IMG/VR virus record: IMGVR_UViG_2859827302_000009
DNA from: a virus
Taxonomy: Duplodnaviria > Heunggongvirae > Uroviricota > Caudoviricetes
Direction: 5' to 3' (one strand)
DNA: 6,599 nt
This document shows positions 1 to 6,599 of the stretch, piece after piece. Numbering within the stretch: the first letter of the stretch is position 1; each line of letters opens with the position of its first letter. Made by a program: the position numbers and the translations under genes. The notes below the pieces were generated by a model. That model was not told the DNA's origin and did no database searches. It worked only from the letters and a program-made list of their open reading frames with translations.

Positions 1-921
1 TCATGCTTTCCCCCAATCTTTACGTGGATCAAAAGACGACTGGGCGTCTGCCAGTTGCTGCCACAGCGCGGCAGTGTTTTCATCCGGTTTCGGCGGCATC
101 ACGATTTTCAGTACCGCATACAGATCGCCGGTCTGTTTTTTGCTCACCAGACCTTTGCCTTTAACGCGCAATCGTTGCCCGGCCTGGCTGCCTGGCGGGA
201 TAGTCAGCAAAATGCTTTCTTTCAGTGTTGGAACGGTGACTTTAGCACCCAGCGCCGCTTCCCACGGGCTAACCGGCACCACAATTTCCAGATCCTGGCC
301 GACAATATCGAACAGCGGATGTGGCGCAATATGAATCACCAGCCACAAATCGCCATTTGGACCACCGTTTTCGCCCGGCGTCCCCTGGCCTTTCAGACGG
401 ATGCGTTGACCATTGCCGACGCCCGCCGGGATCTTCACATTCAGCGTTTTCGGGATTTCCTGTTCGATCATGCCAAAGGCGTTATAAACCGGCAGGTTAT
501 AGCTGATGGTACGCTTATGCTCAGTCAGCGTTTCTTCGAGGAATACCGCCACTTCGATTTCAATATCGTGGCCGCGTGCGGCGGGGCGTTGACGGCTCTG
601 GCGGGCATGCTGACCGAAAATTGACGAGAAGATATCGTCAAAATCTTCGGCATTAAAACTCTGACCGTCGCCATGATGGAACTGACGGTTAAATTGCGGA
701 TCGTTGCGATGTTGCCACATCTGATCATACTCAGCGCGACGTTGTTCATCACTTAACACTTCCCAGGCTTCAGCGACCTCTTTGAAGCGGGCTTCGGCAT
801 CCGGTTCTTTGCTGACATCAGGATGGTATTTACGGGCCAGTCGACGATAGGCGGTCTTGATTGTCTTGAGATCGTCCGTCGGTTTCACGCCCATGATGGC
901 GTAATAATCCTTTAATTCCAT
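1..921 (-). CDS. cbpA: Curved DNA-binding protein CbpA (DnaJ-like co-chaperone), complete 306 aa; stop at 1..3, ATG at 919..921
   Basis: Full-length ORF whose translation ([53 protein letters not shown]...) matches my recollection of E. coli CbpA, with a J-domain HPD motif near the N-terminus. GC-rich, typical of core E. coli coding sequence. Confidence 0.95.
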
Positions 922-2649: not shown

Positions 2650-2760
2650 ATGAACAAAACGCTAATCGCCGCAGCTGTGGCAGGGATAGTTTTACTCGCT
2701 TCAAACGCTCAGGCACAAACCGTACCGGAAGGCTATCAGCTACAGCAAGTGCTCATGATG
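2650..2760 (+). pseudogene. agp: agp (periplasmic glucose-1-phosphatase) 5' fragment: codons 1..37 only, interrupted by IS911
   Basis: [37 protein letters not shown] matches my recollection of the Agp signal peptide and N-terminus. A Shine-Dalgarno-like aggaa precedes the ATG at 2650. The frame then runs into the IS911 terminal repeat and stops 23 codons later at 2832. The junction is ambiguous within 2759..2762 because of tga microhomology. Confidence 0.8.
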
Positions 2761-2766
2761 AAGTGG

Positions 2767-3935
<1,169 letters not shown>

Positions 3936-4007
3936 TGGAGCACCTGTGTTGTTCTGAGGTGAGCATATCACCTCTGTTCAGGTGGCCAAATTCAGTGTGC
4001 CACTTCA

Positions 4008-4184
4008 AAGCAGCCAGATTTCTGGTGCGGTTAATAAATGAGGCTGAGCTGGGTTCAGCTTGTTCCGCAGAATCTGCACATTCATGCCTGCACGTTCTGC
4101 CAGTTGCACCAGATTGTGGCGCAGTGCAAATGCACGACAGGCTTCATCAAAATATGGATGTTTGGAAACTTGGTAATCAAACAT
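4008..4184 (-). pseudogene. Phage CII-like regulatory protein (186 CII family), N-terminal 59 codons; truncated by IS911, whose terminal TGA supplies the stop
   Basis: [59 protein letters not shown] resembles the N-terminus of coliphage 186 CII as I recall it. The likely true start is ATG 4184 (the ORF track begins at TTG 4190). An agagg Shine-Dalgarno lies upstream. Confidence 0.6.
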
Positions 4185-4216
4185 GGTCAATGCCTCTGAT
4201 GTATTTCAGAATCGAA

Positions 4217-4438
4217 CTAATTAAGGTTTAGATTGCATTCTGAAAGCGCATCAACGGTCATTGCTGCTATGTTGATCATCACTTTTTCGCGTTTTTTATC
4301 TTTGCGCAGACGGTGACGGATAAGGCGTCCATCAGCCAACATGTCATTGATGGTATCGATGGATAGCCCTGTCAGCTCGCTATAGCGTTCAATAGTCACA
4401 TGAGGCGTGGTAAGAGTGATTGAAATGTTAGGTCTCAT
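4217..4438 (-). CDS. Small HTH protein in the Apl/Cox position of a P2/186-type switch (putative excisionase / lytic-promoter regulator), 73 aa
   Basis: It is the first gene of the transcript divergent from the cI-like gene and sits directly upstream of the CII-like gene. The motif [27 protein letters not shown] resembles the Cox-type HTH. ATG at 4438 is preceded by a GAGGA-like Shine-Dalgarno. Confidence 0.5.
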
Positions 4439-4563
4439 GATGCAACATTCCTCGTTTAATGATGATTAATCAGGACGAATACGGATCGTTTGTATTTTGT
4501 GAACACCATAAGCATACGATCGCACAGTGAAATCATCAAGATAAAAGTTCACTTGGAGTGACC
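4439..4563. promoter_or_regulatory. Divergent promoter/operator region of the immunity switch (between the Apl/Cox-like and CI-like genes)
   Basis: A 125-bp AT-rich gap between divergently oriented genes. Contains a perfect 10-bp palindrome TGATTAATCA (4463..4472), an ACGATCG-type palindromic core near 4516..4522, and GTGAA(C/A) motifs at 4499..4504 and 4527..4532 with an inverted copy at 4547..4553. Confidence 0.4.
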
Positions 4564-5133
4564 ATGAATTTGGAGAAAGGCGGACGAGGCGCCATAGAGC
4601 GCATGGTAGAAGCTTATGGATTCAAGACTCGACAGGCGTTGTGCGATCATTTAGGAATCTCTAAAAGTACACTCGCCACACGCTACATGCGTGACTCATT
4701 CCCAGCAGAATGGGTAATCCAGTGCGCCCTTGAAACGGGCACCTCGCTTAATTGGCTCACAACCGGACATGGTTCAAAGCAAACTTCAGGTAATACAAAT
4801 ACTATGGAAGTTGCTAAATATGTATTATCTGATGGTGCCTTGCGTGAAGACGGTTTTTATATTTTTGATAAGGGATTTCTACCCTCTACGTTTAAAAAAC
4901 CTTTTGTCATCACAGATAACAATTCTGAATTTATTTGTGATAAAGAATTTGATGACATACGTGATGGTAAATGGGTAATAAGTATTGATGGCGAAGTAAC
5001 GATCCGTGACATTACTCGTTTACCCGGTGGAAGAATCTTCGTCGAGGGTGGAAACAGAGCCTTCGACTGTAAGATAGAAGACATTGAAATAATTGGTAAA
5101 ATTATAAGTTTAACAGTTAAATATGTTAGATGA
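4564..5133 (+). CDS. Phage CI-type repressor (coliphage 186 CI family: N-terminal CI HTH domain plus C-terminal oligomerisation domain), 189 aa from ATG 4564
   Basis: ggag Shine-Dalgarno 5 nt before ATG 4564 (the ORF track starts at GTG 4558). N-terminal IERMVEAYGFKTRQALCDHLGISKSTLATRYMR...CALETGTSLNWLTTG and C-terminal ITRLPGGRIFVEGGNRAFDCKIEDIEIIG resemble 186 CI as I remember it. Length and position (divergent from apl/cII, same strand as int) fit. Confidence 0.7.
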   Translation: MNLEKGGRGAIERMVEAYGFKTRQALCDHLGISKSTLATRYMRDSFPAEWVIQCALETGTSLNWLTTGHGSKQTSGNTNTMEVAKYVLSDGALREDGFYIFDKGFLPSTFKKPFVITDNNSEFICDKEFDDIRDGKWVISIDGEVTIRDITRLPGGRIFVEGGNRAFDCKIEDIEIIGKIISLTVKYVR

Positions 5134-5148
5134 TACCGGGAGGAAACT

Positions 5149-5352
5149 ATGCTTGGTAAAGTATTTTTTGTGGTTTTATCATGCTCTTTATCATGCTCTT
5201 TGTTATTAAGCCCACTAACTACCTATGCTAAAAATTATCCTTGTTCTGGGAAAAAGGGAGGTGTCTCTCACTGTACCTCCGATGGAAAATTTGTTTGCAA
5301 TGATGGAACTATTAGTAAATCCAAAAAAATCTGTACTAAAAACTCACGATAA
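5149..5352 (+). CDS. Small secreted cysteine-rich basic peptide, 67 aa precursor (predicted Sec signal peptide, mature form about 41 aa with 4 Cys); function unknown
   Basis: Strong Shine-Dalgarno ggagg 7 to 8 nt before ATG 5149, which lies 15 bp after the cI-like stop. The N-terminus [27 protein letters not shown] has the charged, hydrophobic and A-x-A-like cleavage parts of a signal peptide. Mature part is [41 protein letters not shown] do not recognise a homolog. Confidence 0.5.
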
Positions 5353-5528
5353 CTTTTGCTTTTATATCTGCGTCTAAAATAAAAATGAGCCGCAGGTTAA
5401 CCGCAAAAGTTACATGCTCACATAGCAAAAAGAATAGCCAACTTCATTATGGCTTCAGTGAGATGTATGGTCGGGTGATGCTGCCAACTTACTGATTTAG
5501 TGTATGATGGTGTTTTTGAGGTGCTCCA

Positions 5529-5804
5529 GTGGCTTCTGTTTCTATCAGCTGTCCCTCCTGTTCAGCTACTGACGGGGTGGTGCGTAACGGCAAAAGCACT
5601 GCCGGACATCAGCGCTATCTCTGCTCTCACTGCCGTAAAACATGGCAACTGCAGTTCACTTACACCGCTTCTCAACCCGGTACGCACCAGAAAATTATTG
5701 ATATGGCCATGAATGGCGTTGGATGCCGGGCAACTGCACGCATTATGGGCGTTAGCCTCAACACGATTTTACGTCACTTAAAAAACTCAGGCCGCAGTCG
5801 GTAA
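5529..5804 (+). CDS. insA: IS1 InsA, 91 aa, GTG start
   Basis: Protein identical to the copy 1 InsA. The A6C frameshift heptamer A AAA AAC lies at 5780..5786. Confidence 0.9.
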
Positions 5805-5848
5805 CCTCGCGCATACAGCCGGGCAGTGACGTCATCGTCTGCGCGGAA

Positions 5849-6226
5849 ATGGACGAACAGTGGGGATACGTCGGGGCTAAATCGCGCCAGCGCTGGCTGT
5901 TTTACGCGTATGACAGGCTCCGGAAGACGGTTGTTGCGCACGTATTCGGTGAACGCACTATGGCGACGCTGGGGCGTCTTATGAGCTTGCTGTCACCCTT
6001 TGACGTGGTGATATGGATGACGGATGGCTGGCCACTGTATGAATCCCGCCTGAAGGGAAAGCTGCACGTAATCAGCAAGCGATATACGCAGCGAATTGAG
6101 CGGCATAACCTGAATCTGAGGCAGCACCTGGCACGGCTGGGACGGAAGTCGCTGTCGTTCTCAAAATCGGTGGAGCTGCATGACAAAGTCATCGGGCATT
6201 ATCTGAACATAAAACACTATCAATAA
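5849..6226 (+). CDS. insB: IS1 InsB frame (InsAB' transposase by -1 frameshift); ORF shown from first Met
   Basis: Protein identical to the copy 1 InsB ORF. Confidence 0.85.
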
Positions 6227-6241
6227 GTTGGAGTCATTACC

Positions 6242-6599
6242 GAAAAACAGAAGCATCCCTATCAGTAAAGAGCTTTACGAAGAGATCATGGCGCTTGATG
6301 GGTTCAATTTCTTCACAGACTGCTATTTTCAATTTTTATCCGTGATGGAAAAAACGTCTATCGTGCTCCCTCGCGGTCAACTCACACACGTTCTGCGCCA
6401 TACGTTTGCGGCGCACTTCATGATGTCGGGTGGAAACATTCTGGCCTTACAAAAAATTCTCGGACACCACGATATAAAAATGACTATGCGTTACGCACAT
6501 CTGGCACCGGATCATCTGGAAACGGCGCTCCGTTTCAATCCTCTGGCAACGCTGCCAAGTGGCGACAAAGTGGCGGCAGCGGTTGGCATTACCCCGTAA
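6242..6599 (+). pseudogene. int: Tyrosine recombinase / phage integrase (P2 Int family), C-terminal fragment of about 118 codons; 5' two-thirds missing at the IS1 junction
   Basis: LTHVLRHTFAAHFMMSGGNILALQKILGHHDIKMTMRYAHLAPDHLETALRFNPL matches the catalytic C-terminus of P2-type integrases (conserved Arg/His box and the Tyr in RYAH). The frame is open from the IS1 end and stops with TAA at 6597..6599. No integrase N-terminus is present upstream of IS1. Confidence 0.8.

Follow-up and report, generated by a model that had tools for sequence, protein, structure and literature searches.

Positions 4008-6599 of the window (the whole 6,599-nucleotide stretch of DNA that was analyzed) correspond, with a probability that we put at roughly 0.88, to the int-proximal end of a 186-type prophage (P2 family, Peduoviridae), and comprise a remnant of its lysis-lysogeny switch together with the marks of its decay. 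In order, this region contains a cII stub, a Cox/Apl-type gene, a 125-bp switch region, cI, a ydcA-like gene, IS1, and a 3′ fragment of int. A reading made from the sequence alone had proposed a 186-type prophage immunity remnant here, and each element that it named was found in its place with matches far beyond chance; the proposed gene order of truncated cII, cox-like gene, cI, and int fragment was borne out by comparisons with Pfam, PHROG, PDB entry 2FJR, and phage 186. The region is ordinary, and routine annotation has already named it.

Identity and chromosomal setting of the remnant

The closest relatives of the CI-like, Cox-like, and Int pieces, as well as of CII, all belonged to the P2/186 family rather than to non-phage families. 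BLAST comparisons gave 98.7 to 98.8% DNA identity between positions 4008-5473 and intact Escherichia coli prophages, and 100% identity between positions 6242-6599 and ECCWS199. The first block (98.7% identity) corresponds to the int-proximal end of the complete SF-468 prophage. At least 627 of 5,426 complete E. coli genomes carry most of the remnant region. Only 1.8 kb of prophage DNA is retained in the window copy.

The usual site of this prophage is between ybjL and rcdA (ybjK). In the SF-468 relative, a 26-bp att core was present at both ends. The window is an exact substring of NCBI CP026828.1, in which rcdA lies ~100 bp past the int stop codon and is followed by ybjJ and ybjI. The host is probably Shigella, judging from the CP0267xx-CP0268xx accession series and the load of IS elements and pseudogenes. 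The piece of prophage in the window is dead, as had been claimed; however, further pieces survive elsewhere in sister chromosomes, including dam′, A′, a dinI/tum-like gene, and a candidate defense ATPase.

Base composition was less informative than had been supposed. The remnant is indeed more AT-rich than cbpA (40.5% G+C, or 42.0% when the int piece is included, versus 53.1%), but this is weak evidence for the foreign origin that the sequence-only reading had argued from it, because the neighboring chromosomal yccE has only 33% G+C and is thus more AT-rich than the remnant; AT-richness alone is not diagnostic here. Rfam and tRNA scans recovered no RNA genes in the window.

The lysis-lysogeny switch

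The cI gene (4564-5133, plus strand) is intact and encodes a 189-aa protein with the Pfam domains Phage_CI_repr (E = 2.8e-33) and Phage_CI_C (E = 2.7e-29), which matched the solved structure of 186 CI (2FJR, 8.1e-31) as well as a second 186 CI entry (2FKD). Its identity is 99.5% to an E. coli prophage CI, only 56% to the closest CI of a sequenced phage, and 31% to 186 CI across the full length (over 175 aa), the last of which implies a different immunity specificity. Downstream, a ydcA-like gene (5149-5352, plus strand) that the sequence-only reading had missed lies between cI and int. The gene encodes 67 aa, is named YdcA family protein in RefSeq (PF27300, YdcA), and matched PHROG 6000 (unknown function; 9.7e-31); the product has a hydrophobic N terminus, is Cys-rich, and carries a 12-bp tandem duplication in its gene (SCSL SCSL) relative to the E. 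coli prophages. In PADLOC, neither CI nor the ydcA-like protein matched a defense family.

The first gene of the lytic operon, on the opposite strand (4217-4438, minus), encodes a 73-aa protein assigned to PHROG 575, "Cox-like excisionase and repressor" (6.1e-31), and we infer that this Cox/Apl-type product would act as both excisionase and switch repressor. By tblastn, it is 85% identical to sequences of Klebsiella P2-like phages and 37% identical to the cox product of Haemophilus phage HP2 (E = 7e-4); homologues are annotated as Cox in P2-like phages, and the protein bears only a marginal resemblance to 186 Apl (40% over 20 aa). No Pfam match was detected for this protein. A PDB match to 8VD6, a de novo designed repeat protein (PMC12339374), was rejected as spurious because the repeats each matched only weakly, with a per-domain E of about 0.5.

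Between and partly within these genes, two promoters were predicted by homology, through an alignment that crosses a poorly conserved stretch. The putative lysogenic promoter pL (4420-4448, plus strand; TTGAAA-17-CAACAT) has its -35 hexamer inside the cox/apl-like gene, points at cI, and lines up position by position with the hexamers annotated for 186 pL (TTGCGA-17-CATGAT). The putative lytic promoter pR (4511-4539, minus strand; TTGATG-17-TATGCT) points at the cox/apl-like gene and aligns with the annotated 186 pR (TTTACT-17-TATATT). Fit to the consensus is weak, with 8 of 12 matches in the window pR and CAACAT as the pL -10. A consensus scan, which gave no enrichment over shuffled sequences, flagged pR in the SF-468 prophage (TTGACG-17-TATGTT), whereas the window pR fell below its threshold. 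As placed, pR would face pL with start points about 50 bp apart. P2-like phages as a rule have promoters that face each other in this way (PMC7498355). The genes do diverge, but the predicted promoters, whose hexamers align with those annotated in 186, would not be the "divergent promoters" proposed earlier. By analogy with 186, CI operators would be expected over pR.

An inverted repeat, ATGTTTG-N13-CAAACAT (4158-4184), lies over the cII start and is the counterpart of the 186 CII binding site that activates pE, for which the 186 annotation gives a CII protein_bind feature at 23435-23462. Both 7-bp arms are invariant in an alignment of the window, the SF-468 prophage, phage vB_EcoM-813R9, and 186. 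A different inverted repeat, TTTCAGAAT-N24-ATTCTGAAA (4204-4245), was considered as an FR-like CI site or a terminator and set aside, as it has no second copy and no other support.

The family had been given as "P2/186-type", of which the 186 half stands, on the large two-domain CI together with CII, and the P2 half does not. The designations cI and cII, like that of a Cox-like first lytic gene, are also used for P2-type (C/Cox) and lambdoid (CI/Cro/CII) immunity regions, and HP1/HP2 cox is a closer relative of the Cox-like protein than 186 Apl. An identity of either kind is nevertheless extremely improbable. CI carries both 186-specific Pfam domains and has a match in the crystal structure of 186 CI, the CII stub belongs to the family of 186 CII (Phage_CP76), and both the gene order and the regulatory DNA align with 186; P2, moreover, has a small C repressor and no CII. 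Taken together, the CI and CII families, the 186 alignment, and the PDB match refute a P2-type or lambdoid identity and leave the region as a 186-type switch.

IS911 and the truncated cII

On the cII side, the remnant ends at an insertion sequence of 1,249 bp (2759-4007, minus strand) that shares 99.8% identity with annotated IS3-like IS911 elements and carries the Pfam domains HTH_Tnp_1 and rve. As this match spans 2759-4007, position 4008 is the exact boundary of the element. The cII stub that adjoins it (4008-4184, minus strand) comprises codons 1-59 of 169, with matches to Phage_CP76 (E = 1.5e-17) and the CII-like PHROG 35458 (E = 2.8e-43); the terminal TGA of IS911 (4005-4007) serves as its stop codon. 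The stub is 78% identical to residues 1-59 of 186 CII and 98% identical to the CII of an intact E. coli prophage, and the identical 59-aa product is recorded in 207 blocks of the assembly collection. The helix-turn-helix region is kept and everything after residue 59 is gone. The shortest CII truncation reported to be active is CII145 (PMC7708051), and since only 59 codons remain here, function has presumably been lost.

IS911 has agp′ and cII′ as its two neighbors, without a target duplication (TGA/AAG). A ~274-kb inversion between two IS911 copies in opposite orientation best accounts for the agp′-IS911-cII′ junction. This inversion is inferred because a single sister genome, CP026807.1, holds both parental junctions, cII′::IS911-dam′ and agp′::IS911-rutR, ~274 kb apart and with their IS911 copies inverted relative to each other. 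A crossover between the copy in cII and the inverted one in agp would have made cbpA-yccE-agp′ and the cII stub neighbors. When species-representative genomes were scanned for exact matches to the IS911/cII junction, none was found, probably because Shigella lacks a separate entry among them.

IS1 and the integrase fragment

The remnant had been described as clipped by insertion sequences at both ends. This is correct for the cII side, where IS911 forms the border; on the int side, IS1 (5474-6241, plus strand, 768 bp) lies inside the remnant, and int resumes beyond it and runs to its natural stop codon, which coincides with the end of the window at 6599. The element contains the Pfam domains InsA and DDE_Tnp_IS1 (2.9e-74) and is annotated as IS1A/IS1B in matching E. 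coli records. BLAST breakpoints against intact relatives showed that it replaces 762 bp, namely the int promoter region and int nucleotides 1 to 695. The remaining int 3′ fragment (6242-6599, plus strand; Pfam Phage_integrase, E = 1.2e-11) consists of codons 233-350 plus the stop, that is, 118 codons, and is 100% identical to the C terminus of an intact E. coli prophage Int and 67% identical to residues 229-329 of 186 Int. The int gene of the window is non-functional, and in all six sister genomes examined int already had a W208* stop. A 123-aa int ORF with a TTG start was not on record when looked up; CP026828.1 was located through an ORF that fuses yccE and IS1. The cII′, int′, and agp′ sequences here are pseudogene fragments and not novel genes.

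A second IS1 copy lies at 1473-2240, inverted relative to the first, about 3.2 kb away, and differing from it at 1 of 768 bases. This pair raises the notion of a composite transposon, or of an inverted segment, with the immunity region as mobile cargo. We give it next to no credence. The flanks of the IS1 copies share no 9-bp duplications (those of the copy at 5474-6241 are GTATGGTCG and GAAAAACAG) and lack the swapped pattern expected after inversion, the DNA on both sides of each copy is collinear with yccE and the prophage, respectively, and the IS1-bounded arrangement was found in one contig only. A composite transposon or inversion was rejected on the flank sequences and collinearity; instead, given the collinear flanks, each IS1 has a simple deletion beside it, of 848 bp in yccE and 762 bp in the prophage.

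Decay and possible function

Genome comparison shows a decay in which IS911 entered cII at codon 59 in an ancestor and int acquired W208*; the 762-bp deletion associated with IS1 then followed in CP026828.1. The sequence-only reading held that the regulatory core survives. This is so for cI, the cox-like gene, pL/pR, and the pE/CII-site DNA, with cII itself being cut to 59 codons, and the intact remainder would amount to the maintenance half of a 186 switch, that is, pL-cI, a facing pR-cox/apl-like gene, and the pE/CII-site DNA. Following the 186 paradigm, predicted pL would drive cI, and probably ydcA too, and the facing pR would drive the cox/apl-like gene; CI made from pL would bind operators over pR and shut it, which would also relieve interference on pL. 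The cell would then be immune to superinfecting phages of the same immunity type, because CI from pL would shut pR. The element would be unable to establish lysogeny for lack of a functional CII, to excise for lack of Int, or to grow lytically for lack of linked genes for replication and structure.

Whether this module is retained for a reason can be weighed against the variation among sister remnants. IS911-truncated sister remnants are 99.0 to 99.9% identical, with six single nucleotide polymorphisms (SNPs) in 1,466 bp, and intact cI and cox may reflect nothing more than recent decay. In keeping with this, an inert relic, in which the module is silent or useless and cI and cox persist through short time and small target size, is a real possibility, if one that we lean against. 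IS elements are destroying everything around cI and cox, ydcA carries a substitution at window position 5274 and no gene call in one sister (L025), and an IS3-family element interrupts ydcA in two others. Against it, all 17 sister contexts retrieved had an uninterrupted cI (189 aa) and an uninterrupted cox-like gene (73 aa), although two of the retrievals overlap in genomes and one of these was a look-up by exact CI sequence, which selects for intact CI. Furthermore, E. coli prophages often have this immunity type, as given by the count of genomes above, and immunity would therefore have a target to act against.

The predicted pR -35 hexamer, whose ancestral allele is TTGACG, contains two of the six SNPs, at neighboring bases. 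TTGATG occurs in the window and in L020, L026, and L027, and TTGGCG in five genomes. This apparent parallel change in a predicted promoter is only a mildly interesting lead. It could be read, although we consider this unlikely, as the mark of a cI/pL-pR/cox (plus ydcA) immunity module that has been domesticated and kept under selection in Shigella-type lineages, with its lytic promoter/operator repeatedly altered. It is similarly doubtful that pR was weakened at least twice independently by the adjacent substitutions TTGACG to TTGATG and TTGACG to TTGGCG. At rather long odds, the benefit would be that SOS-triggered transcription from pR no longer reads through the cII stub to the IS911 transposase genes, which share its orientation, or, with as little likelihood, that relief of convergent interference raises CI and YdcA expression. 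In addition to the adjacent SNPs, domestication would fit with the presence of TTGATG on both ydcA duplication-plus and duplication-minus backgrounds, with the lack of any exact match to the window's 91-bp allele in 5,426 E. coli genomes, and with the location of IS911 orfA and orfB on the same strand as pR. However, the observation is post hoc and comes from a small sample of phylogenetically related genomes, and slippage can remove the 12-bp ydcA duplication. What any selection would act on is also ambiguous, because both -35 sites lie in the cI 5′ leader and the expected CI operator as well.

If it is still active, the intact CI would make the strain immune to a type of 186-like phage that more than a tenth of sequenced E. 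coli carry. Such immunity would be relevant to phage typing and phage therapy, although the concept is unremarkable. The region illustrates, in textbook fashion, how IS elements erode a prophage and, probably, invert part of the chromosome in a Shigella-type genome, with little significance beyond correct annotation.

Comparison with known systems

The remnant most resembles the switch of coliphage 186 (Eganvirus ev186), int-cI/pL-pR/apl-cII, which it matches in gene order and orientation, in its two-domain CI (the 2FJR match), in its CII family (78% over 59 aa), and in Int (67%). The predicted pL/pR hexamers and the inverted repeat of the CII site likewise fall at homologous positions, with the promoters apparently face-to-face. 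Unlike in 186, the first lytic gene is a 73-aa Cox-like gene of PHROG 575 that only marginally resembles Apl, the predicted promoters are separated by 14 bp less, and a ydcA-like gene separates cI from int, which abut in 186. Integration also differs, being at the ybjL terminator/rcdA site rather than at the tRNA gene ileY, and cII and int are truncated in the window.

The closest intact relative, that of SF-468 (NZ_CP012625.1), is a complete P2/186-like prophage of about 34.6 kb between ybjL and rcdA, bounded at both ends by the 26-bp att core. It encodes P2-type head, tail, and lysis genes, A, dam, fil, cII, a cox-like gene, cI, ydcA, and an int adjoining rcdA; a DinI-like (Tum-type) gene was found in relatives, outside the window. 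In addition to the DNA identity of 98.7% over 4008-5473, the window shares with it an identical Cox-like protein, a CI of 99.5% identity, the ydcA-like gene, and the int 3′ end. The window copy differs in being broken by IS911 and IS1 and in its predicted pR hexamers (TTGATG/TATGCT versus TTGACG/TATGTT).

The P2 immunity region (C, Cox, Pc/Pe) has face-to-face promoters, as predicted here, and likewise a first lytic gene of the Cox type, a dual excisionase and repressor (PMC7498355), and the intact SF-468 relative has P2-type structural genes. Unlike P2, the remnant encodes a 189-aa repressor with 186 CI domains and contains a CII gene. Cox of Haemophilus phages HP1/HP2 falls in the same PHROG annotation class as the 73-aa protein (the HP2 cox product is 37% identical), but the relation is distant (E = 7e-4), the host is another one, and the rest of the switch differs. 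Finally, nothing sets the remnant apart from other E. coli and Shigella prophages, cryptic or defective, in which a repressor persists and where erosion by IS elements has left an immunity gene without lytic functions.

Gene content of the remnant

ORF listing and Pfam scans of the window mapped cbpA (1-921, minus strand), remnants of yccE (922-1472 and from 2241, split by an IS1 at 1473-2240), the agp upstream region to 2649, the first 37 codons of agp (2650-2758, plus) and IS911 (2759-4007, transposase on the minus strand), which was 99.8% identical to elements annotated as IS911. The IS911 boundary coincided exactly with the remnant start at 4008. The remnant consisted of a cII stub (4008-4184, minus), a 73-codon cox/apl-like gene (4217-4438, minus), a 125-bp intergenic switch region (4439-4563), cI (4564-5133, plus), a 67-codon ydcA-like gene (5149-5352, plus; PHROG 6000), another IS1 (5474-6241, plus) and the 3'-terminal 118 codons of a tyrosine integrase gene (6242-6599, plus). 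The remnant was AT-rich relative to cbpA (40.5% versus 53.1% G+C), as the sequence-only reading had observed, but chromosomal yccE has only 33% G+C, so base composition alone is little proof of foreign origin. yccE itself was a pseudogene (1182-2249) with an in-frame TAG after 17 codons; its IS1 lacked a target duplication and lay alongside an 848-bp deletion, and IS1 occupied other yccE positions in other sister genomes (L009, L011).

The protein domains, the order of the genes and the homology of the regulatory DNA place the remnant switch in the 186-type family. CI carried two 186-specific Pfam domains (Phage_CI_repr, 2.8e-33; Phage_CI_C, 2.7e-29) and matched the 186 CI crystal structure (2FJR, 8e-31), and the cII stub matched Phage_CP76 (1.5e-17). 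The 73-aa Cox/Apl-like protein had no match in the Pfam scan and matched PHROG 575, 'Cox-like excisionase and repressor' (6e-31); tblastn related it to the first lytic gene in P2-like phages infecting Klebsiella, Escherichia, Yersinia, Pasteurella, and Haemophilus, with 37% identity to HP2 cox. Identity to 186 was 78% for CII (59 aa retained), 67% for the C-terminal Int fragment, 31% for CI (over 175 aa), and marginal for Apl (40% over 20 aa). Every gene and gene fragment in the order first proposed was strongly supported, and the top relatives of the CI-, Cox-like, CII, and Int pieces all belonged to phage families; the original interpretation holds, with the corrections given below. In hundreds of genomes these genes already carry names from routine RefSeq annotation, and the finding is ordinary.

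Regulatory DNA of the switch

Annotated 186 elements were mapped onto the window through an alignment of four sequences: the window, the complete prophage of E. coli SF-468, phage vB_EcoM-813R9, and 186. The predicted lysogenic promoter pL (4420-4448, plus; TTGAAA-17-CAACAT versus TTGCGA-17-CATGAT in 186) has its -35 inside the cox-like gene, and the predicted lytic promoter pR lies at 4539-4511 (minus; TTGATG-17-TATGCT versus TTTACT-17-TATATT). They are face-to-face, with predicted starts ~50 bp apart; this layout is described for 186 and P2-like phages, where the repressor operators overlap the lytic promoter and the Cox/Apl sites are located between the two promoters (PMC7498355). The description of these promoters as divergent was therefore inaccurate, since it is the genes that diverge, and the predicted promoters converge. 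In a consensus scan the SF-468 pR (TTGACG-17-TATGTT) passed and the window pR did not. Both arms of a predicted CII site (4158-4184, ATGTTTG-N13-CAAACAT; 186 annotation 23435-23462) were invariant in all four sequences. At 4204-4245, TTTCAGAAT-N24-ATTCTGAAA forms a perfect inverted repeat with 9-bp arms that extends across the stop codon of the cox-like gene and the spacer between cox and cII, approximately where 186 has its FR CI site and the CII-activated promoter pE.

Intact relatives and the integrase end

Positions 4008-5473 were 98.8%, and 6242-6599 100%, identical to a prophage of E. coli ECCWS199. Matches occurred in 1151 of 5426 complete E. coli genomes, 627 of which covered at least 80% of the query. 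In SF-468 the complete element (~34.6 kb, between ybjL and rcdA) has a 26-bp direct repeat, ATGGGTTTTTTGTTGCCTGAAATTTA, at its two ends and encodes, in order, ogr, P2-type tail, baseplate, lysis, head and terminase genes, cargo, a DinI/Tum-like gene, A, dam, a traR-like gene, DUF2732, DUF5347, fil, cII, cox-like, cI, ydcA-like, and int. This immunity type was absent from the sequenced phages of the phage collection, where the best DNA match covered 53% of the query at 76% identity and the closest CI was 56% identical. The ECCWS199 copy, the best match in E. coli, is partly deleted (L014 26376-33677), most tail and head genes being missing, so members of this prophage family decay in E. coli too; its cargo hotspot holds an AIPR-family gene.

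A yccE/IS1 fusion ORF found only in the window pointed to NCBI CP026828.1, which contains the window sequence without any difference. There the int stop is followed by ~100 bp holding a diverged att-core-like sequence and then by rcdA, ybjJ, ybjI, ybjH, and mdfA. The natural right end of the prophage therefore lies just outside the window. A look beyond the window on this side, as had been suggested, recovered the att-core-like sequence and no further phage genes; the supposed clipping of this end by an insertion sequence did not hold, as int reaches its natural stop at 6599, the window's last base.

Decay and proposed rearrangement

In the assembly collection, 207 blocks contained the 59-aa cII stub, whose stop codon is the terminal TGA of IS911. 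Every sister genome inspected had IS911 at cII and, beyond it, dam and A in truncated form, IS66, a DinI-like gene, and an ATPase; because they are shared, the IS911 insertion and the accompanying loss (cII codons 60-169 and onward into dam) are ancestral. Outside the window, in the far part of the same remnant in sister genomes (L004 18517-20166, in CP026807.1), a 549-aa AAA_15/AAA_21 ATPase matching PADLOC candidate defence family PDC-M01A (3e-55) is followed by a 293-aa gene; the ATPase adjoins the DinI/Tum-like gene, in a slot with different, non-homologous genes in the three genomes compared.

All six sister genomes examined (L019, L020, L022, L023, L025, L026) shared a nonsense change in int, W208* (TGG-to-TAG, int nt 623), within the conserved ...TGARW... 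motif, so the gene was already dead when the IS1-associated deletion occurred. In CP026828.1, IS1 stands in place of 762 bp, of which 67 bp lay upstream of int and the rest were int nt 1-695; the flanks of this IS1 (5474-6241) showed no target duplication. The first claim that the prophage is dead holds for this piece, int being already interrupted in sister genomes.

IS911 cuts agp after codon 37, next to rutR in sister genomes and to the cII stub in the window; in sister genomes the loss beside IS911 takes in the remainder of agp and extends through the rut region. CP026807.1 holds agp'::IS911-rutR at ~1.76 Mb (L010/L013) and cII'::IS911-dam' at ~2.04 Mb (L004), with the two IS911 copies inverted relative to each other. 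From these sequences we infer that recombination between the two IS911 copies inverted ~274 kb and so created the agp'-IS911-cII' junction. Such recombination would yield exactly the order and strands of the window, cbpA(-), agp'(+), IS911, cII'(-), cox(-), cI(+), int(+), rcdA(-), and the missing target duplication at the window IS911 (TGA / AAG) is expected for a recombinant copy.

Variation at pR and the ydcA-like gene

Across 12 loci with IS911-truncated remnants (~7 distinct haplotypes), six SNPs occurred in 1466 bp, two of them at adjacent bases (4535, 4536) of the predicted pR -35 hexamer (4534-4539). The ancestral TTGACG was found in E. coli prophages, L023, and L025; TTGATG in the window (L017), L020, L026, and L027; and TTGGCG in L018, L019, L021, L022, and L024. 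TTGATG occurred with and without a ydcA duplication, and the window's exact 91-bp allele was absent from complete E. coli genomes. As a lead only, two adjacent, independent substitutions may have hit the predicted pR -35. Because pR is directed across the cII stub toward the IS911 transposase genes, which have the same orientation, a weaker pR could be advantageous; however, both sites also fall in the cI leader and expected operator region, which leaves the target of any selection ambiguous, and the observation is post hoc, from a small sample of related genomes.

The ydcA-family protein (5149-5352) has a hydrophobic N-terminus and is Cys-rich, and its gene occupies a moron-like position between cI and int. 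In the window this gene carries a 12-bp tandem duplication (SCSL SCSL) absent from E. coli prophages and some sister genomes. Phage vB_EcoM-813R9 has a 558-aa ATPase-like gene in this slot, which therefore looks like a variable cargo position.

Proposed working and comparison with known systems

By analogy with the 186 paradigm, pL would transcribe cI and probably ydcA, and CI would repress pR, relieving convergent interference on pL. The CI-repressed state would be self-maintaining and would make the cell immune to homoimmune phages, a type common in E. coli. Establishment of lysogeny is presumably lost, because 59 of 169 CII residues remain and the shortest CII truncation reported active is CII145 (PMC7708051); excision would be lost because there is no Int, and replication and morphogenesis would be lost as well.

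Compared with P2, the immunity region is 186-type and not P2-type, which removes the P2 half of the original label. Compared with 186, the remnant is predicted to be heteroimmune, with an HP1-like Cox in place of Apl.
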